From positions 1 to 24,000 of the forward strand of contig DATKKG010000075.1 in assembly GCA_035543015.1 (NCBI GenBank): DNA of 24,000 nucleotides. The letters run 5' to 3'. Each line of letters opens with the position of its first letter. Position 1 is the first letter of the stretch. Positions 3,015-19,652 of this stretch are shown one piece after another. The translations under genes were made by a program, and so were the position numbers. The notes beneath the pieces were generated by a model that was not told the DNA's origin, searched no databases, and saw only the letters and a list, made by a program, of their open reading frames with translations. The DNA is from Conexivisphaerales archaeon. Its GTDB lineage: Archaea; Thermoproteota; Nitrososphaeria; Conexivisphaerales; DTJL01.

Positions 3015-3090
3015 TGGGCCGGGCAGGATTCGAACCTGCGATCTTCGCCGTGTCAGAGCGACGTCCAAGACCAGACTAGACGACCGGCCC
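3015..3090 (-). tRNA. tRNA-Val (anticodon GAC), no encoded CCA
   Basis: The reverse complement folds by hand into a 76-nt cloverleaf: GGGCCGG-TC-GTCT-AGTCTGGTCTT-GGAC-G-TCGCT-CTGACAC-GGCGA-AGATC-GCAGG-TTCGAAT-CCTGC-CCGGCCC-A. Seven-bp acceptor stem, T-loop TTCGAAT, anticodon loop CT-GAC-AC. Confidence 0.92.
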
Positions 3091-12060: not shown

Positions 12061-12870
12061 TCAGGCAGCCGGCGTCTTCTTGGGATGCCTGATGACCATC
12101 AAGAGCGTCCCCGCCGTGGCGAGGGCCACCACGATATCGGCGGCCAAAGTCACGTTGGAGACCCCGGCGGCCACCCCGTTCGCCCATTGGTTAGACACTA
12201 TGCCGAACAGAGCCCAGACTATCACCAGACCGTAACCGGGATCCCTTCTCGTTGCCAGCAGTATGAGCGTGATGGCCAGCGCTACGACGGTGACCAACTG
12301 AGCCCAAGTTGTTGCGGCGATGCCGAAGCCGTCCCAGCTAATCGAGACCAAGGCGGAGGAGACGTCAGCTATCGAGGCGATCGTTATCCAACCGAGGTAG
12401 ACGGAGAACGCAAGGTGAACGGCCAGCTTCTCGTTCCTGCTGGCGCCCGACCTCCCTATGTTCAGCCTCAGGTAGATGGCGATAAGCGACAGAAGGAGGG
12501 CGAATATCAGGACCACCGAAGCCGTGATGTATTCGTACTGCCAGAGGAACAGCCAGACGATGTTGAAAAGGGAGCTCAGCATGAAGAGGTAGCCCACCTT
12601 CCCGACAAAGGAGTCGCCCCTGTGGCCCGGCAGAAGCTGGAATACGATGAAAGCGCCCAAGAGCGCATAGATGACTCCCCATATGGCGAACGTGAAGCCT
12701 GCCGGAGTGATCAGCGTCGGAAAGGCGGCCGAGACGTCCGCCGTGTTCACGCCTCCGAGGAGCCTGGTGCTCCCGGCTATGGAGTTGATGACCAGCATGG
12801 CGACATACGCGATCACGTTTCCGACCTGCAGGAAGGAGATTCCTTGCTTCTCTGGCAACCCGGTCCCCAT
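12061..12870 (-). CDS. TspO/MBR-related (tryptophan-rich sensory protein-like) long-form membrane protein
   Basis: Polytopic. GGVNTADVSAAFPTLITPAGFTFAIWGVIYALLGAFIVFQ resembles the roughly 270-aa TspO-related family (…G..TG.VS..YP.LF.PAG.TFSIWGVIY.LL). ATG at 12870; the longest ORF starts with TTG at 12888. The CDS is solid but the family call is from memory. Confidence 0.6.
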   Translation of the reverse strand: MGTGLPEKQGISFLQVGNVIAYVAMLVINSIAGSTRLLGGVNTADVSAAFPTLITPAGFTFAIWGVIYALLGAFIVFQLLPGHRGDSFVGKVGYLFMLSSLFNIVWLFLWQYEYITASVVLIFALLLSLIAIYLRLNIGRSGASRNEKLAVHLAFSVYLGWITIASIADVSSALVSISWDGFGIAATTWAQLVTVVALAITLILLATRRDPGYGLVIVWALFGIVSNQWANGVAAGVSNVTLAADIVVALATAGTLLMVIRHPKKTPAA

Positions 12871-13008
12871 GTCTCGTGTACCTTTCAAGGGTATTTCTGG
12901 ATATCTGTTGCGGCTGGAGAATGCAACCTGTGCCCATGTCTCGCGACTTGCTGTGGCACCAGTCGGAGTTATATGTGGCAGGCAATTCAGAGGAGGCGGA
13001 TACCATAA

Positions 13009-13527
13009 TTGGTGGAGGCAATCAGCTACGAGGTCCTGAAGAAGCTTGGCCAGGTGGAGATAAGGAAGTATCCCCTGATTGTGGCGGCTAGGGTGGACGG
13101 CTACGGCGACGGCGGCTTCAACTTGCTGTTCAACTTCATCTCGGGGAGGAACAGCAAGGCGGAGAAGGTGGCGATGACGGCACCCGTGGTCTCAGAGAAG
13201 ATCGCGATGACGGCACCCGTGCTCTCGGAAGGAGGCTCCATTTCGTTCGTCATGCCAGAAGGCTACACAAAGGAGACCACGCCCCGACCCTTGGATGCGA
13301 GGGTCAAGATCGTCGATTATCCGCCCAGGTACCTGGCGACCCTCAGATTCTCCGGGAGGTGGACCAACAGGGCCTTCGAGTCCAGGTCCAGGGAGATGAT
13401 GAACGAACTTCAAAAGGCTGGCATTGAGCCCAAAGGAGTGCCATTCTCCATGAGGTACAACGCGCCCTTCACACCCTGGTTCATGCGCAGAAACGAAGTG
13501 GCCGTGGAAGTCAGTTATCCTGTGTGA
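13009..13527 (+). CDS. SOUL haem-binding family protein
   Basis: 172 aa. YEVLKKLGQVEIRKYP, the duplicated VAMTAPVVSEK/IAMTAPVLSE motif, and RYNAPFTPWFMRRNEV. Only TTG (13009) or GTG (13012) starts are available. Confidence 0.88.
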   Translation: MVEAISYEVLKKLGQVEIRKYPLIVAARVDGYGDGGFNLLFNFISGRNSKAEKVAMTAPVVSEKIAMTAPVLSEGGSISFVMPEGYTKETTPRPLDARVKIVDYPPRYLATLRFSGRWTNRAFESRSREMMNELQKAGIEPKGVPFSMRYNAPFTPWFMRRNEVAVEVSYPV

Positions 13528-13783: not shown

Positions 13784-14470
13784 CTAAGCGCCCCTCTTGA
13801 GCCCGTTCACAAATCCCAAGCCATCTTTGAGGCTGAGGCTGCAGTAGTCCGCCAACCTCTCTCCAGACGCCTTCCCGGTAACCGCTTCTTTGACTCGCTT
13901 CGATTTGAGGAGGCGGCTCCCCACGATTATCACGGAGTCCCTGAAGAGGGTGTCGGCCCTCAACGCCCGAAGGGTCTTGATCAGACTCTCCTCGTTGTAC
14001 CCCATGGTCATGGTCAGGCAGACTATGTCAAAGCGCCGGCCCAGTCCCCTCAGGTACTCAAAGACTCGATTCAAAGAGGCGCCCCTCTCAATGAATTCAA
14101 CGTCCCACCCTTCGCTAGAGAGCAAAGCTGAAAACATCTTCAGCCCTACGTAATGGAACTCTCCTTCAACGCAGTTCAGAAGCACGGCAGACCCCTTTCT
14201 GACCCCCGCCTGCGCTCTGAGTCGCCGAGCGGCCTTCTCGATCATTTCCATGGTCGTCGCCGTCGCAAAGTGCTCGTCGGCGACGCTGATTTCCTTCTCA
14301 GCCCAGAGCTCCCCTATCCTGACCTGGGCCTCTCCGAGGGTCTCCATTATCGGGAGAAGCCTCTCTCCCTTGTCCAGCATGGACTCGACCACAGATCCCG
14401 CCCTTTTCCTGTCCCTATCCAGGACGGCTTTCAAATAGTCGTCCTTGTAGCTGACCGGTTCTCCTTTCAA
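13784..14470 (-). CDS. Stand-alone cobalamin (B12)-binding protein of CarH/AerR photoreceptor type, with no DNA-binding domain
   Basis: The N-terminal helical bundle has IGELWAEKEISVADEHFAT, an exact W-x9-EH. The Rossmann-type B12 domain has VEGEFHYVGLKM (E-x-H-x-x-G lower-ligand His), IVCLTMTM and IIVGS. 228 aa with a TTG start needed to keep helix 1. Confidence 0.85.
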   Translation of the reverse strand: MKGEPVSYKDDYLKAVLDRDRKRAGSVVESMLDKGERLLPIMETLGEAQVRIGELWAEKEISVADEHFATATTMEMIEKAARRLRAQAGVRKGSAVLLNCVEGEFHYVGLKMFSALLSSEGWDVEFIERGASLNRVFEYLRGLGRRFDIVCLTMTMGYNEESLIKTLRALRADTLFRDSVIIVGSRLLKSKRVKEAVTGKASGERLADYCSLSLKDGLGFVNGLKRGA

Positions 14471-14570
14471 CGTGACCCTTCTACGCGGAGAGGTGAATTA
14501 AGCGTTTTCAGATGGGCGGTCTGCGGATTCCCTCTCGCCCATAATCGTTAATAGCAGAAAGGGTCCCCGC

Positions 14571-15404
14571 ATGCCCGTCTTGAACGACGAAGAGCTCACC
14601 AAGACCCTGATGCGCTTCGGAATCACCCGCCAGGAGGCCGAGGTCTTCCTCCTCCTCTCCAAGGTCAAGAAGGGGGGAATCGAATGGATCGGAGGGAGGG
14701 AGGCGGCCTCCGTAGCGCACAAGAGCAGGGTGAGGACCTACCAGGTCCTCGAAAGGCTCGCGGAGCTGGGACTGGTCAGCACCGACTTCAGCAGGCCCAA
14801 GAAGTACTCGGCTGAGGCTCCCCAGGTCGCCGTCAGAAGGCTCATGGGCATCCACGAGGCCCGACTCACGGAGCTGAGCCACCTGGAAGGAGACGTCGTA
14901 GATGGGCTCTTCAAACTGGAGCCGCCTGACCTGGGTTCGCTCAAGGAAGAAGAAGAGGAGGGGAGGACCAACGTCGTCCTCCTTAGGGGGCTCCCCAACA
15001 TTCAGAACACGTTGAGAAAGGTCATGGAATGCGAGGAGCTGGCCATGACCATCAACGAGGAGTCCGCCGCGCATCTAATGAGCACCCTGGCATACCTGAC
15101 GGAGAAGCCGGGACGCCTGATCCTTCTGCTTTCGAAAGAGGTCTCGCGGAGACAGCTCTCCCGGGCCGGCCTGAGCCCCGGCGCTGAGGTGGCCCACTTC
15201 AGGGGAGAGCTCCCAACCATCGTGATGACCGAAAGGCATACCCTCTTCCTGCACTACTCTACCAAGGAATACAGACCACGGCCGCTGTCGCCGCCGACGC
15301 GCAAGTCCAAGGTCACCGACTGCATCCTCGTCGAGGGAGCCTCCTACGTGCACCGGATGAGGGAGGTCTTCGACGCCCTTTGGGATGCCTCCGTGCAGGA
15401 TTGA
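14571..15404 (+). CDS. TrmB family transcriptional regulator
   Basis: N-terminal winged HTH: LMRFGITRQEAEVFLLLSKV...ASVAHKSRVRTYQVLERLAELGLVSTDFSRPKKYSAEAPQVAV, then a coiled linker and a C-terminal effector-like domain. TATA-like gttaatag lies about 22 nt upstream. Confidence 0.85.
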   Translation: MPVLNDEELTKTLMRFGITRQEAEVFLLLSKVKKGGIEWIGGREAASVAHKSRVRTYQVLERLAELGLVSTDFSRPKKYSAEAPQVAVRRLMGIHEARLTELSHLEGDVVDGLFKLEPPDLGSLKEEEEEGRTNVVLLRGLPNIQNTLRKVMECEELAMTINEESAAHLMSTLAYLTEKPGRLILLLSKEVSRRQLSRAGLSPGAEVAHFRGELPTIVMTERHTLFLHYSTKEYRPRPLSPPTRKSKVTDCILVEGASYVHRMREVFDALWDASVQD

Positions 15405-15495
15405 AGTAGTTTCACATGTTGTAAGATATCATCCTAACTAACATCAGTCTTATAGCGTCTCCGAAGTTGGCTTCATTCAGTAAAAGGTGCCAGGA

Positions 15496-17196
15496 ATGAC
15501 ATCCCAGCAGCTGGAAACCGTGACGCAGGAGTCCACACGCATCGACGCAGCAAAGCTAGTCACCCTTCTTGTGCTCAGCCTCGCGCTGGCCATAGTGATA
15601 ATCGACGGGACCATAGTCAACATCGCCCTTCCCTCCATTCAGACCCAGTTCGCCGTTTCGGTCAACGATCTGGAGTGGATAAGCGCCATTTACGCCCTCG
15701 TCTTCGGCGGCTTCCTCCTCACTTGGGGACGCCTGGGCGACGAGTTCGGACGCCGCCGCATTTTCATGGCCGGGATCCTGACGTTCATCTCCGGCTCGAT
15801 GATAACGGGCTTCGCAAACGGCCTTCCTATGATTCTTCTCGGTAGGCTAGTCCAGGGCTTCGGCGCCGCGATGGCTTCACCTTCCACTCTCTCCATACTG
15901 ACGACCACCTTCTACGGCCGCTCCAGAGGGATAGCGTTCGGGATTTGGGGAGCCGTGGCTGGAGCAGCCGGCGCCCTCGGACCTCTGATCGGAGGCTACC
16001 TTACCACATATGCCACCTGGAGATGGGCCTTCCTGATCAACGTGCCAATTGGAATAGTTGCTCTGGCGGGCTCCTACTTCTTCATCAAGGAGTCGATGTC
16101 CAGGTCCGGGCGCTACGACCCCGACTACCGGGGGACGGCTCTAGTGTCATCCGCCCTGGCCCTTCTCATATTCGGACTCATCGAAGGACAGACCTACGGC
16201 TGGCTGGCTGCGAACCAGGTCTTCAAGATTGGCAGCTTCACCTGGCCCTTCACCTCTGTGGCCATAACGCCGGTCGCCATGGCCCTCGGGCTTGTCTTGG
16301 CAGCTGCCTTCGTGCTGAACGAGAGGTCCCGCCTAAGGGCCGACAGAGAGGTCCTCCTCGACCTCAGGCTCCTGGGCTACCGCGGCTTCCGTTTCGGCCT
16401 TCTGACCGTGGGCGTCGTAGCCATGGGTGAGTTCGGCATCTTCTTCATCCTCTCGCTGTATTTCCAGTTGGTAAGGGGGATGAGCGCCCTCTCCACAGGC
16501 TATGCCCTTCTTCCGTTTGCGGGCACCGCTTTCTTCGCAGCACCCCTCGCAGGCCTTCTGTCCTCGCGCATAGGTGCGAAGTGGATAGTCACCACAGGCA
16601 TGGCCCTGGAAGCCACATCTCTGATCTTGCTTTCGCAGCTCACCGGCGTCAATACCTCTCTGACGACGATTTATGCCATTCTGGCGCTCTACGGGGTCGG
16701 AGTTGGGCTGGCGATAGGCCAGCTCACTGGCCTCGTCGTCGGCAGCATACCTCCTCAGAACGCGGGAACGGCTTCGGGCGCCAACAGCACCATTAGACAG
16801 TTGGGCGCGGCCTTCGGCGTGGCCATCATCGGGGCCGTGCTGGTGGCCCAGGTCTCCTCGGTGGGCCAGGCTCAGCTCCAGGCAAGCACAGTGATACCCT
16901 CCTACCTGAAAACGGCGCTAGCTCCCGTACTAAGCCAAGGACTCATCGGAGGCTCTGCCCCATCGCTGCCGCCATCGATCATCAACTCTCCAATAGGCCT
17001 GGCCATTCAGGGGATTTTCAACTCAGCGATAACCGAAGGCGTGCGATACGCCGCCTTGGTTGCCGGGTTCTTCGTCTCCCTAGGGGCGATAAGTTCCCTG
17101 CTACTGCCCAACAACAGGGTCAAGGGAATCAAAGGAGCCAAGAGCTCCCGCAATCAATATACTGAGAGAACCTACAAGGGAGTCGAGGGTAATTGA
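15496..17196 (+). CDS. MFS transporter, DHA2 (EmrB/QacA, 14-TMS) drug:H+ antiporter family
   Basis: LALAIVIIDGTIVNIALPSIQTQF, WGRLGDEFGRRRIFMAG, LLGRLVQGFGAAM and WRWAFLINVPIG, with about 14 hydrophobic segments. The ATG at 15496 has AGGTG 6 nt upstream; the longest ORF starts with GTG at 15487. Confidence 0.92.
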   Translation: MTSQQLETVTQESTRIDAAKLVTLLVLSLALAIVIIDGTIVNIALPSIQTQFAVSVNDLEWISAIYALVFGGFLLTWGRLGDEFGRRRIFMAGILTFISGSMITGFANGLPMILLGRLVQGFGAAMASPSTLSILTTTFYGRSRGIAFGIWGAVAGAAGALGPLIGGYLTTYATWRWAFLINVPIGIVALAGSYFFIKESMSRSGRYDPDYRGTALVSSALALLIFGLIEGQTYGWLAANQVFKIGSFTWPFTSVAITPVAMALGLVLAAAFVLNERSRLRADREVLLDLRLLGYRGFRFGLLTVGVVAMGEFGIFFILSLYFQLVRGMSALSTGYALLPFAGTAFFAAPLAGLLSSRIGAKWIVTTGMALEATSLILLSQLTGVNTSLTTIYAILALYGVGVGLAIGQLTGLVVGSIPPQNAGTASGANSTIRQLGAAFGVAIIGAVLVAQVSSVGQAQLQASTVIPSYLKTALAPVLSQGLIGGSAPSLPPSIINSPIGLAIQGIFNSAITEGVRYAALVAGFFVSLGAISSLLLPNNRVKGIKGAKSSRNQYTERTYKGVEGN

Positions 17197-18017
17197 ACTC
17201 AGCTGAAAGACGTAAGCTGATTTCCAAGTCTCCGATTTCCTTCAGGTACCTCAAGCGCTTCAACACGGCCGCCGGGGCTCTGCATCTCGTCCAAGGGCTG
17301 ATCATGCTGGCCCTAGGCCTCTCTCTGACCTGGAGCCGGGACATCTACACCTACTACCTCAAGTTCTCCGTCATCAGCCTGTCGCCGCCCGTCTTCAAGA
17401 TCGCCCCCAACCCCCAAGTCCTGTTCACCATCAACAACTTGGGCGCCATACTCGCTTCGTTCCTGCTCATATCGGCCGCCGCACACCTCATAATCGCCTT
17501 CGTCAGGAACAAGCAGTACAACGAGAACCTTTCCAAGGGCATGAACCCCTACCGCTGGTACGAATACTCACTGTCCAGCTCAATAATGATCGTCCTGATC
17601 TGCCTATTCCTGGGCATCTGGGACCTCTGGTCGCTGGTTATGATCTTCACGCTCAACGCCATGATGATCATGTTCGGCTACCTCATGGAGAAGATGAACC
17701 AGACCACGGAGAAGACGGACTGGTCGGCCTTCCTCCTGGGCTGCGTCTCCGGAGGTGTTCCGTGGGTGGTGCTGCTGGCCAACTTCGTGGGCCTCATCGG
17801 GTCTACGAACCTCAGGCCCCCGGCGTTCGTCTACATGATAGTGGTCATCTACTTCGTTCTCTTCAACAGCTTCGCCGTCAACATGGTGCTTCAGTACAAA
17901 GGAGTCGGGAAGTGGAAGGACTACCTCTACGGTGAACGCGTCTACATCCTCCTCAGCCTCATCGCAAAGAGCCTGCTGGCGTGGATCGTTTTCGTAGGGA
18001 TCTTCGCGCCGTTCTAG
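17193..18017 (+). CDS. Heliorhodopsin
   Basis: 274 aa. FNTAAGALHLVQ, AAAHLII, YRWYEYSLSSSIMIVLI, LGCVSGGVPW and FNSFAVNMVLQYKGVGKWKDYLYGERVYILLSLIAKSLLAW parallel remembered heliorhodopsin 48C12 motifs. The Schiff-base Lys (SLIAKS), counterion Glu (WYEYS) and both His are retained. The TTG start at 17193-17195 follows an in-frame TAA directly and overlaps the MFS TGA stop (17194-17196). Confidence 0.93.
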   Translation: MNSAERRKLISKSPISFRYLKRFNTAAGALHLVQGLIMLALGLSLTWSRDIYTYYLKFSVISLSPPVFKIAPNPQVLFTINNLGAILASFLLISAAAHLIIAFVRNKQYNENLSKGMNPYRWYEYSLSSSIMIVLICLFLGIWDLWSLVMIFTLNAMMIMFGYLMEKMNQTTEKTDWSAFLLGCVSGGVPWVVLLANFVGLIGSTNLRPPAFVYMIVVIYFVLFNSFAVNMVLQYKGVGKWKDYLYGERVYILLSLIAKSLLAWIVFVGIFAPF

Positions 18018-18073: not shown

Positions 18074-18221
18074 ACTCCAGAACTTGGAAGGCTTCTCCGG
18101 GACCTCTGCTGACCATGCTTCGCCCAGCCAACAAATGTGACTTGAACCTTGTAAGTTATGATTCTAAATATCTTCCGACTTAAGTAGGATGCGAGAAAGG
18201 TCATTCTTAGGGAAAAACACG

Positions 18222-18632
18222 ATGGCAAACATCGTTCAAACCGCAATACAGGCTGGCTCCTTCAAGACGCTCGTAGCGGCTGTGCAGGCTGCCGGTCTGG
18301 TCGACACTCTGAGCAGCAAAGGCCCGTTCACGGTCTTCGCACCCAACGACGACGCCTTTGCTAAGCTGCCGAAGGGCACGGTTGAGAGCCTCCTTAACGA
18401 CAAGGCCAAGCTCACTTCCGTACTCACCTACCACGTCGTAGCCGGCAAGGTCATGTCAAGCGACGTAAGGACAGGCCCGGTCAAGACAGTCCAGGGACAG
18501 AACGCCCAGATGAAGGTGTCCGGCATCTTCTCCAAGACCGTCATGATCGACAACGCCAAGGTCATCAAGCCCGACATAGTGACCGACAACGGCCTAATTC
18601 ACGTAATCGACTCGGTCATCCTGCCAGAGTAA
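18222..18632 (+). CDS. Fasciclin (FAS1) domain protein, single domain, no signal peptide
   Basis: [50 protein letters not shown]...[10 protein letters not shown]...[13 protein letters not shown] is a canonical FAS1 domain. The family N-terminus fits the ATG at 18222; the longest ORF starts at 18189. Confidence 0.88.
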
Positions 18633-18653: not shown

Positions 18654-18791
18654 AGCTCCAGCGGGCCCTCTTTCCTAGAGGTTTCTTGTTTCTACAACAC
18701 CGGTATTCTAGAATGTTCTATGCAGCGTCTCCATGAACTCAATCGGAAGAGCAATACAATAAAGGGGTCTCAGACACTCATATGCCGCACA

Positions 18792-19652
18792 ATGGAAGCC
18801 ACCATGACGTTGGAGGGCAGGGTCTGCATGGTCACTGGCGCCACCTCTGGCATAGGCAGAGCCACTGCCGAGGCCCTGTCGCGGATGGGAGCTGCCCTAG
18901 TCTTGGTTGGTCGCAGTCGGGAGAAGAGCGAGGAGACGATCATGTTCATCAAGGAATCGACCGGCAACTCGAAAGTCGAGTACCTTCTGGCTGACCTGTC
19001 TTCGCAGAAGGAGATCCGAAGCCTGGTGGAGAAGTTCAAGTCAAACCACAGTTCGCTTCACGTCCTGGTCAACAACGCCGGAGCCACCTTCTCGAAACGC
19101 CGTGAGACCGTCGACGGCTTCGAGATGACCTGGGCCACCAATTACCTCAGCTGCTTCCTCCTGACGAACCTCCTCTTGGACCTGCTCAAGTCCAGCGCAC
19201 CTTCTCGCATCGTCAACGTGTCTTCCGGCCTGCACAGGCGTGCGCGGCTCGACTTCAACGACCTACAGCTGAAGGCAGGCTACTCCAGGGATCGCGCCTA
19301 CGATCTTTCCAAGCTCGCCATGGTTCTCTTCACCTACGAGCTGGCCCGCCGCCTTGAAGGGAGCCGTGTGACGGCGAACGCGCTGGGCCCGGGCCTCGTG
19401 AGGACGAACCTTGGAAAGAACGAAGACCTTGCGACCAAGCTGGCCAAGAGCTTCGCCGACCTCTTCGCCGCCAGTGCTGAAGAGGGGGCAAGGACCAGCG
19501 TCTACCTAGCTTCATCCCCGGAGGTGGAGGGGGTCACGGGGATGTACTTCCTGAAGGGCAGAGAGGCGCGATCCTCCGACTTGTCATACAATTCCGAGTT
19601 CGCCAAACGACTGTGGGAGATCAGCGAAGCGCAGACAGGGCTGAAGCGGTAG
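18792..19652 (+). CDS. SDR oxidoreductase of the retinol-dehydrogenase-like (RDH11-14 / WWOX-like) subfamily
   Basis: VTGATSGIGRATA, NNAGA, DGFEMTWATNYLSCFLLTNLLLDLLKSSAPSRIVNVSSGLH and AYDLSKLAMVLFTYELARRL (YxxxK) closely follow the remembered RDH12-type pattern (DGFE...NHLGHFLLT.LLL..LK.SAPSRIVNVSS..H; AY..SKLAN.LFT.ELARRL). TATA-like caataaag lies about 28 nt upstream of the ATG at 18792; the longest ORF starts at 18720. Confidence 0.9.
   Translation: MEATMTLEGRVCMVTGATSGIGRATAEALSRMGAALVLVGRSREKSEETIMFIKESTGNSKVEYLLADLSSQKEIRSLVEKFKSNHSSLHVLVNNAGATFSKRRETVDGFEMTWATNYLSCFLLTNLLLDLLKSSAPSRIVNVSSGLHRRARLDFNDLQLKAGYSRDRAYDLSKLAMVLFTYELARRLEGSRVTANALGPGLVRTNLGKNEDLATKLAKSFADLFAASAEEGARTSVYLASSPEVEGVTGMYFLKGREARSSDLSYNSEFAKRLWEISEAQTGLKR

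Follow-up and report, generated by a model that had tools for sequence, protein, structure and literature searches.

A stand-alone B12-binding protein and a TrmB-like regulator as a putative split light switch of Nitrososphaerota

The 24,000-nucleotide (nt) stretch of DNA from a Conexivisphaerales archaeon analyzed here, referred to as the window, encodes a stand-alone, sensor-type B12-binding protein of 228 amino acids (aa; 13784-14470, minus strand) and, divergently from it, a TrmB-family regulator of 277 aa (14571-15404, plus strand). The relatives of these two genes are consistently found together, and a common palindrome lies close to the TATA-like boxes of their presumed targets. Judging from these comparisons, we consider it somewhat more likely than not that the pair constitutes a CarH-like light switch in split form, in which the sensor would act in trans on the TrmB-like output. 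The layout of the locus had been recognized in an initial annotation made from the sequence alone, and it is borne out here: the intergenic region between the two genes spans exactly 100 nt (14471-14570), and both the positions of the open reading frames (ORFs) and the Pfam and NCBIfam assignments agree that the regulator directly precedes an operon for an MFS transporter and a heliorhodopsin.

The B12-binding protein consists of two recognizable domains. Pfam identifies B12-binding_2 (PF02607; 45 bits) at residues 10-77 and B12-binding (PF02310; 32.4 bits, with a cut-off of 32.1) at residues 96-184, and finds no MerR, helix-turn-helix (HTH) or other domain in the 228 residues. Because the ORF is the longest possible, its TTG start being the first start codon past an in-frame stop, a hidden N-terminal DNA-binding domain upstream is impossible, and the earlier claim that the protein lacks a MerR domain therefore stands. 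The AlphaFold model (predicted local distance difference test score (pLDDT) of 88.5; predicted template modeling score of 0.86) likewise contains only a four-helix cap and a Rossmann domain, with no globin-like bilin-binding domain. Both of the signatures on which the initial annotation had based its photoreceptor assignment, W-x9-EH (ELW56AEKEISVADE66H67F) and the lower-ligand histidine motif E-x-H-x-x-G (VEGE104FH106YVG), are present, and neither varies among 11 family members, the most distant of which has 38% identity. G53-x-x-W56, E66-H67 and G103-x-x-H106 are invariant, and the motifs formed by G53, W56, E66, H67 and H106 are also unchanged across histidine-kinase-fused, photocobilin-like, MerR-fused and XRE-fused relatives. 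In the alignment with the photocobilin SasPcob, W56, E66-H67 and H106 correspond to W61, E71/H72 and H108, and the crystal structure of that protein shows Trp61, Glu71-His72 and His108 in contact with adenosylcobalamin (AdoCbl) (PMC10979010). Light-responsive domains have four validated signature elements, namely GxxW, EH, GxxH and GxxxP (PMC11796333), and the first three are thus present in the window protein.

Comparison with all chains in the PDB places the protein in the same company. Its best matches are the photocobilins SasPcob and AbDPcob (8j2w, 8j2x and 8j2y), with E-values of 1.6e-12 for the single sequence and 6e-23 for the family profile, and the light-responsive domain of CtMerR (8jbs) is matched by the profile at 4e-18. 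Methyl-transfer corrinoid proteins rank lower in the profile search (4jgi, 1e-12; MttC, 3e-8; MtaC, 7e-6; also 1y80), while TtCarH is matched at about 1e-3 and AerR (7te2) at 0.03 with the single sequence and 0.0095 with the profile. The predicted fold superimposes on CtMerR (8jbs/8jbt) with a template modeling (TM) score of 0.74-0.79, on SasPcob (8j2w) with 0.79 and on TtCarH with 0.57-0.69, as compared with 0.45 for the corrinoid proteins 4jgi and 7xcn and 0.68 for MtmC (3ezx). Matches to the NCBIfam families pyl_corrinoid, MtbC and MtaC are sub-threshold, at 17-27 bits versus cut-offs of 215-450. Since the sequence, profile and fold comparisons agree, the protein sorts with the light-responsive B12 domains of photocobilins, CtMerR and CarH, and not with the methyl-transfer corrinoid proteins of the MtaC/MtbC type, a grouping that would have spoken against the initial annotation. 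The methyl-transfer reading was rejected on the NCBIfam scores, the PDB ranking, the fold and the locus contexts together; the name "methanogenic corrinoid protein MtbC1", which several family members carry through automatic annotation by the Joint Genome Institute (JGI), is a COG-level label and not evidence.

The family to which the protein belongs is small. An exhaustive profile search covering 1.84 billion representatives returned about 13 clusters scoring above 190 bits, after which the scores fall to about 130 bits, and the members lie in tiers of 75, 70, 45 and 40% identity to the window protein. Two of the clusters (P0076, 512 aa; P0079, 453 aa) are fusions of the B12 module to HisKA and HATPase_c domains. 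One B12-histidine kinase fusion comes from Candidatus Nitrosocosmicus sp. FF01 (locus L015:9956-11509) and retains both W-x9-EH and VEGEFHYVG, and it is putatively a sensor histidine kinase that depends on B12, encoded in a genus of ammonia-oxidizing soil archaea; no TrmB-like gene lies within the 20-kb locus that holds it. That the B12 module serves as the input domain of a sensor kinase in two clusters testifies directly to the sensory nature of the clade. The outgroups sampled point the same way, in that all possess signaling architectures (an N-terminal globin-like domain with the cobalamin-binding domain (CBD), CBD-histidine kinase-receiver, CBD-XRE-HTH, and PAS/GAF/GGDEF/EAL-CBD) and none has a methyl-transfer context.

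At several loci, the neighbors of the B12 gene are an ABM-family monooxygenase of about 100 aa and a protein of 120-152 aa; the latter, which is homologous between these loci, has no Pfam match and is weakly similar to phycobilisome/globin proteins (PF00502, E 0.005). Such an arrangement occurs at L013:5030-6600, L012 and L037, and also at L015:11755-12596 and L011:7335-8609; homologues of the ABM and photoglobin-like genes are absent from the window. The ensemble looks like a "split photocobilin", with heme-degrading enzyme, photoglobin and B12 sensor encoded apart.

The evidence for a partnership with the regulator comes from gene order. Loci were gathered by a metagenome scan anchored on the TrmB-like family and a genome scan anchored on the B12 family, and were annotated with family hidden Markov models. 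After de-duplication, 33 distinct TrmB-like sequences of 37-86% identity remained, many of which derive from related peat and soil metagenomes and so do not represent 33 independent lineages. A B12 gene is adjacent in 32 of the 33, and the contig of the remaining one ends inside the TrmB gene; the co-occurrence and synteny proposed as a check by the initial annotation are therefore conserved, and the pairing is essentially obligate. Four arrangements occur in all. TrmB may precede B12 with gaps of -4 to 49 nt, among them 4-nt overlaps and 3-8-nt gaps; B12 may precede TrmB with a 4-nt overlap (L031); the order may be B12, HTH_45, receiver and TrmB, as in Nitrososphaera (L012, L013 and L037); or the two genes may diverge, as they do in the window and in L033, L057 and L058, which are closest to it. 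In B12 relatives at about 40% identity, both genes lie next to each other and share a strand. Wherever a host could be identified, it belongs to the Nitrososphaerota (Conexivisphaerales, Nitrososphaera, Nitrososphaerales and one unclassified member), and the bacterial B12 proteins matched by the same patterns have far lower scores and no TrmB neighbor. As the adjacency survives four rearrangements and divergence to about 40% identity, it constitutes strong evidence for a functional partnership, which is probably physical as well. In the Nitrososphaera arrangement, the small HTH_45 winged-helix protein and the stand-alone receiver that separate the two genes lie downstream of a copy of the operator described below (L013:6772-7563), and their insertion suggests cross-talk with a two-component pathway.

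The regulator itself, as modeled, has the complete architecture of TrmBL2/TrmB. Pfam assigns residues 13-82 to TrmB (PF01978; 28.5 bits, cut-off 25.6), while the NCBIfam TrmBL1 match is sub-threshold and restricted to the HTH. The predicted structure (pLDDT 83) comprises a winged HTH (residues 6-81), a helix of 30 residues (84-114), an acidic linker that is disordered and, at the C-terminus, an alpha/beta domain resembling phospholipase D (PLD; 134-276). In Foldseek searches, the whole chain matches TrmBL2 (E 2e-12) and TrmB (3qph, E 3e-8), and the C-terminal domain matches PLD-like folds together with the first subdomain of the TrmB sugar-binding domain; in both the model and the Foldseek comparison the protein ends past the PLD-like domain, such that the second, sugar-binding subdomain is absent. 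The model thus looks like a TrmB scaffold with no effector pocket of its own, which fits a sensor supplied in trans. This family, too, is small (16 matches), and its identity tiers of 81, 72, 47 and 38-44% mirror those of the B12 family.

When the divergent promoter regions of all loci were compared, a palindrome, TGTAA-N14-TTACA, with the extended form TGTAAGTT-N8-AACTTACA, was found to be common to the family. It is centered between outward-facing TATA-like boxes and lies 5-6 nt from each, as exemplified by gATAAAAGgcggtTGTAAGTTACCTATGGAAATTACAacccgcTTTAATc in L039. A systematic scan located it at the divergent promoters between Fasciclin genes and MMPL-TrmB-B12 operons. It also occurs ahead of Fasciclin genes that come after the B12 gene (L031, L034, L038 and L053), between TrmB and B12 (L003-L005 and L030), upstream of the HTH_45-receiver-TrmB genes of Nitrososphaera, upstream of SOUL in L034, where SOUL is directly under the operator, and, in L057 and L058, ahead of a conserved gene for 119/120 aa. 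Essentially every TrmB-containing locus that extends over a promoter region carries the palindrome at its promoters; save for one stray match, the palindrome is absent from loci with no TrmB-like gene, bacterial B12 loci included. From this strict co-occurrence and the usual autoregulatory layout, we infer that the TrmB-like protein is the factor that binds the palindrome.

Within the window, the pattern with at most one mismatch occurs once, at 15420-15443 (TGTAAGATATCATCCTAACTAACA, one mismatch; candidate operator 1), with 0.07 occurrences expected per window. A weight matrix built from 23 sites outside the window gives this unstranded site 26.5 bits and a second candidate operator, likewise unstranded, 22.4 bits (18150-18173, TGTAAGTTATGATTCTAAATATCT); in 200 shuffled windows, the maximum was 18.9 bits and the 95th percentile 12.2. 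After exactly 6 nt, both sites are followed by a TATA-like box, TTATAG (15450-15455) before the MFS-heliorhodopsin operon and TTAAGT (18180-18185) before a Fasciclin gene. Of the two stretches in which the initial annotation had proposed to test binding of the regulator, 15405-15495 contains candidate operator 1, whereas the divergent region 14471-14570 contains no palindrome.

Alignment of that divergent region with L033, L057 and L058 shows that its conserved blocks are two TATA-like boxes at a distance of 18-26 nt from the respective start codons. On the minus strand, TTAATT (14496-14501) lies 26 nt upstream of the B12 TTG, and on the plus strand, TTAATA (14548-14553; TTTATA in the relatives) lies 18 nt before the TrmB ATG. 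The regulator promoters are consistent with leaderless transcripts, and the layout suggests that the TrmB promoter at 14548-14553 is both leaderless and operator-free. Since 14471-14570 has no palindrome, expression of the B12 and TrmB genes in the sublineage of the window appears not to depend on the operator; elsewhere, in most lineages, the operator also governs the MMPL-TrmB-B12 operon. A perfect 7-bp inverted repeat in the region, ATGGGCG-N17-CGCCCAT (14512-14542), was considered as an operator and rejected: it is not conserved in L033, L057 and L058, where an indel removes its left arm and only the two TATA-containing blocks persist, and it is probably fortuitous.

The positions of the operator define a putative regulon. 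Its conserved core consists of Fasciclin, the most conserved target of the module, and a transporter, which is MMPL in most lineages and MFS in the window. Frequent further targets are a 114-120-aa protein, NmrA-like or short-chain dehydrogenase/reductase-type oxidoreductases, DUF6789 and SOUL. In the window, operator 1 precedes a DHA2/EmrB-type MFS transporter (15487-17196, plus strand; Pfam MFS_1 and NCBIfam), the first gene of the operon, whose true start is likely ATG 15496, preceded by GGTG. The heliorhodopsin gene follows (17193-18017, plus strand; Pfam 319 bits, NCBIfam 351 bits with a cut-off of 100), and as its start overlaps the MFS stop by 4 nt (17193-17196), the two are co-transcribed. 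Operator 2 precedes a single-domain Fasciclin (FAS1) protein identified by Pfam (18189-18632, plus strand). The annotated ATG 18189 follows the TATA-like box at 18180-18185 by no more than 3 nt, so that translation probably starts at ATG 18222 instead, as called in L002; the protein is then a FAS1 domain of 136 aa in which no signal peptide is evident. A Fasciclin protein lacking a signal peptide is unusual, the family being known mainly as extracellular adhesion domains. Among single-domain proteins of solved structure, those nearest to the window's Fasciclin protein are Rhodobacter Fdp and CupS, a subunit of cyanobacterial NDH-1. The AstaP proteins, carotenoid binders induced under photo-oxidative stress, are related more distantly (E 3e-11); a function as pigment carrier is offered as a hypothesis.

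Downstream of Fasciclin lies a short-chain dehydrogenase (Pfam adh_short; 18720-19652, plus strand), a possible regulon member whose position is occupied in other lineages by NmrA-like oxidoreductases. A SOUL heme-binding-family protein (Pfam; 13009-13527, plus strand) is encoded convergently with the B12 gene, and SOUL recurs near the module elsewhere. The 114-120-aa protein (MPHVVLKGSC...), which has no Pfam match, either follows Fasciclin or has its own copy of the operator, and is encoded at L007:3924-4268, L057:1596-1955 and L058:2398-2760; the window contains no homologue of it or of DUF6789. Genes for ultraviolet (UV) repair stand within a few genes of the module at two loci, a UvdE endonuclease at L003:10506-11309 and a pyrimidine-dimer DNA glycosylase (Pyr_excise) at L010:2210-2551. 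They fit a light-related neighborhood, albeit anecdotally.

The place of heliorhodopsin in this regulon merits separate consideration, as the initial annotation had proposed that the pair controls a retinal photoreceptor operon. Among the annotated family loci, heliorhodopsin occurs together with the module only on the window's own contig. The three closest relatives of the heliorhodopsin differ from one another in this respect. On contigs L060 and L061, which encode a heliorhodopsin of 81% identity, Fasciclin and heliorhodopsin follow, in that order, immediately after an operator of 25.3 bits that repeats the TATA-operator-TATA geometry, and neither contig was among the training sites of the matrix. 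Because it is linked to the operator in two arrangements, MFS-heliorhodopsin in the window and Fasciclin-heliorhodopsin in L060 and L061, the heliorhodopsin appears from sequence to be a genuine, lineage-specific member of the regulon. The proposal thus holds insofar as an operator lies at the MFS-heliorhodopsin promoter, and has to be amended insofar as the conserved targets are Fasciclin and an MMPL or MFS transporter. On a further contig, L062, an MFS gene precedes a heliorhodopsin of 86% identity with overlapping stop and start codons (L062:1952-1955); no operator was detectable there, and the MFS gene looks truncated. The recurrent partners of this heliorhodopsin clade, MFS translationally coupled to it by a 4-nt overlap in the window and L062 and Fasciclin ahead of heliorhodopsin in L060:702-2086 and L061, might hint at what the protein acts on. 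Organisms with heliorhodopsin only are thought to rely on imported or converted retinoids, and their heliorhodopsin genes tend to sit among oxidative-stress and signaling genes (bioRxiv 10.1101/2021.02.01.429150), a picture with which the context in the window is compatible.

These elements can be assembled into a mechanism. The 228-aa sensor would bind AdoCbl with His106 as the lower ligand, the adenosyl group being held by W56, E66 and H67 under the four-helix cap, while the TrmB-like protein, with no effector-binding subdomain of its own, would serve as the DNA-binding output. As a dimer, the latter would recognize TGTAA-N14-TTACA, 5-6 nt upstream of the target TATA boxes. In the dark, an AdoCbl-loaded oligomer of the sensor, formed via the conserved E-H interface, would keep the TrmB-like protein in a given state of activity; illumination with green, blue or UV light would then cleave the Co-C bond, alter the conformation or oligomeric state of the sensor, and thereby flip the state of the TrmB-like protein. 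The targets would be the cytoplasmic Fasciclin protein, an MMPL or MFS transporter, oxidoreductases, SOUL and, in the window, the MFS-heliorhodopsin operon, and the regulon is interpreted as a response to light or photo-oxidative stress. The contact between sensor and TrmB-like protein, AdoCbl and light as the signal, and the direction of control are what we infer from the preceding observations.

With respect to direction, TrmBL1 activates when bound upstream of the transcription factor B recognition element (BRE) and TATA box, and represses when bound downstream (PMC4706686). The sites described here are always upstream of TATA, and the 6-nt spacers between operator and TATA box, where the BRE would lie, are G+C-rich; they look like weak BREs, typical of activator-dependent promoters. 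In view of site position, spacer composition and the TrmBL1 precedent, light-dependent activation of the targets is favored, and the dark-state sensor would be an anti-activator.

Several observations weigh against the proposal. The PF02310 match barely clears its threshold. The fourth light-signature element, GxxxP, is absent from the window's sublineage, which has F-I-E-R-G-A-S in its place, while more distant family members retain L-G-x-x-x-P. The same sublineage has VGS where other members have VGG, a position that we take to be the classical GG motif of B12-binding domains. In CtMerR, the proline of GxxxP packs against the adenosyl group of the neighboring monomer across the dimer (PMC11796333), and its loss, together with the VGS variant, could mean that cofactor handling is altered in the window protein. 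With regard to the output, the palindrome could be bound by some other factor, an operator abutting the BRE is also compatible with repression, and among the top 150 representatives, of which 10 architectures were scanned, no TrmB-B12 fusion was found but only histidine-kinase fusions. Finally, heliorhodopsin is not a conserved target, and its closest large-contig relative (L059, 77% identical), which lies beside a kdp operon, has neither operator nor module nearby.

The most serious alternative retains the architecture of a sensor in trans and differs from the favored model in sign alone. In this case, the pair would be a true split CarH, in which the dark-state AdoCbl sensor oligomer acts as a co-repressor, bridges TrmB dimers on the palindrome and occludes BRE and TFB at both divergent promoters until light derepresses them. 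The operator lies midway between a pair of TATA boxes that face outward, at 5-6 nt from both, which would suit such a mechanism, as would the autoregulation of the operon in most lineages; in Thermus, the CarH/LitR operator is similarly situated between divergent promoters. The dark states of CarH, CtMerR and photocobilins are, moreover, head-to-tail dimers or tetramers formed via the conserved E-H motif (PMC10979010; PMC11796333). However, TrmB-family sites upstream of BRE/TATA activate (PMC4706686), and the BRE-like spacers argue in the same direction, so that we regard co-repression as unlikely, if still a serious contender.

The main rival in which light plays no part is that the same two-protein regulator reports cobalamin status, any available corrinoid tuning the TrmB-dependent expression of transporters, for example for the export or uptake of corrinoids or tetrapyrroles. 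The Rfam scan of the window detected no cobalamin riboswitch or other RNA element in the region, its only match being a tRNA gene, and to our knowledge archaea generally lack B12 riboswitches. The conserved targets include the MMPL and MFS transporters and the tetrapyrrole-binding SOUL protein, the GxxxP adenosyl contact has been lost in the window's sublineage, and Nitrososphaerota are noted as cobalamin producers (PMC6908642). Set against these points, the adenosyl pocket W-x9-EH is invariant, and an AdoCbl-loaded protein is inherently photolabile; the nearest characterized relatives are all photoreceptors; heliorhodopsin, UV-repair and photoglobin-like genes occur in the neighborhoods; and cobalamin biosynthesis or salvage genes were seen in no locus. 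Sensing of cobalamin status is therefore considered rather improbable, more so than co-repression. That the B12 protein is instead a methyl-carrying corrinoid protein or a cobalamin chaperone unrelated to regulation, with its TrmB neighbor of no mechanistic meaning, is very improbable indeed: the automatic MtbC1 names and the weak NCBIfam matches noted above speak for it, but more than 40 loci contain no methyltransferase partner gene, the adjacency outlasts four rearrangements, some members are fused to histidine kinases, and the corrinoid proteins fall below the photoreceptors by sequence and by fold (TM 0.45-0.68 versus 0.74-0.79).

B12-based light sensing is established in bacteria, where the B12 module is either fused to MerR, as in CarH, or acts in trans on CrtJ/PpsR, as in AerR. 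CarH and LitR (TtCarH, 5c8a/5c8d; CtMerR, 8jbs) share with the window protein the two-domain cobalamin module carrying GxxW, EH and GxxH (TM 0.57-0.79), and the same logic, in which that module controls DNA-binding activity at an operator between divergent promoters. Unlike in the window, however, the MerR DNA-binding domain is fused to the module, whereas here the output is a separate TrmB-family protein acting on archaeal TBP/TFB promoters, and the window's sublineage has also lost the GxxxP element. TtCarH further adopts a bis-histidine light state, and the window protein, which has alanine (A57) after the tryptophan where TtCarH has His132, can have none of that type, although this position varies among light-responsive domains (PMC11796333).

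The AerR-CrtJ and PpaA-PpsR systems of purple bacteria, to which the initial annotation had likened the pair, are closer in organization, each comprising a stand-alone B12 protein that acts in trans on a transcription factor encoded nearby. This part of the analogy holds, as a stand-alone B12 protein is indeed paired with a separate regulator. The similarity to AerR (7te2) is very weak (E 0.01-0.03), however, photocobilins and CtMerR being closest, and the partner is TrmB-like in place of CrtJ/PpsR. AerR binds photolyzed cobalamin via an upper-face histidine, whereas the window family retains the AdoCbl pocket W-x9-EH; and where AerR works by antirepression, an operator upstream of TATA suggests activation here. 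The photocobilins (SasPcob, 8j2w; AbDPcob, 8j2y) are the closest solved relatives of the module (E 6e-23, TM 0.79), and they and the photoglobin-B12 bundles are tied to one- and two-component signaling (PMC10979010, PMC8717448); family members in Nitrososphaera and Nitrosocosmicus adjoin ABM and photoglobin-like genes. Photocobilins carry a globin-like domain, which the window protein lacks, and the output here is a TrmB-family regulator. TrmB, TrmBL1 and TrmBL2 (3qph, 5bqt), finally, have the same winged HTH, coiled-coil helix and PLD-like domain and likewise a palindromic operator, and in TrmBL1 activation or repression depends on where the site lies. The system described here differs in having no sugar-binding subdomain and no sugar-metabolism targets, and its operator differs in sequence from the TGM motif. 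Effector sensing thus appears to have been outsourced to a separately encoded B12 protein.

B12/photoglobin modules have previously been catalogued beside genes for one- and two-component signaling, archaea included (PMC8717448), with no occurrence of TrmB in the text of that survey; the SignatureFinder paper is likewise without TrmB. The literature searched yielded no paper that combines TrmB with a B12-binding domain, nor, judged by titles and abstracts, any characterized archaeal B12 photoreceptor, in keeping with the initial annotation, which knew of none. What is new here is the TrmB output family, the extension of this logic to archaea as a new domain of life, a defined operator and the link to heliorhodopsin. 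The more ambitious claim, that this is an archaeal B12 photoreceptor amounting to "CarH in two pieces", with an AdoCbl sensor acting in trans on a TrmB-family activator at a 24-bp operator, confined to Nitrososphaerota, placing heliorhodopsin, Fasciclin and SOUL under a second, chemically unrelated photoreceptor, and the first of its kind, is advanced tentatively, at slightly less than even confidence.

In any event, the analysis provides a complete, testable parts list consisting of sensor, output regulator, operator sequence with promoter geometry, and regulon, for a module conserved across a phylum that includes globally important ammonia oxidizers. The light sensitivity of ammonia oxidizers is an old ecological observation, and the proposed switch, if true, would offer a molecular handle on light responses and photoinhibition in Nitrososphaerota, soil ammonia oxidizers included (Nitrososphaera, and Nitrosocosmicus with the kinase-fused version). 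The tie between heliorhodopsin and a defined regulatory element could help to establish the cellular role of that protein, and a design with the sensor in trans, working on a TBP/TFB promoter of eukaryote-like type, could find use as a component in optogenetics.

Elsewhere in the window, the G+C content is uniform, and scans for sigma-70 promoters and intrinsic terminators, which are ill-suited to an archaeon, gave nothing above shuffle expectation. The tRNA gene that is the sole Rfam match lies at 3015-3090 on the minus strand (60.8 bits). A multi-pass membrane protein of 275 aa (12061-12888, minus strand) is divergently paired with the SOUL gene, and this pair recurs near the module in L030; the protein has no Pfam or PDB match, and a resemblance to TspO noted by eye was confirmed by nothing further. 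Class III nucleotidyl cyclase genes (Guanylate_cyc, PF00211) lie within about 8-12 kb of heliorhodopsin in two different Nitrososphaerota contigs, at L001:18907-19965 on the window's own contig (about 4506-5564 of the window) and at L059:83-1531.

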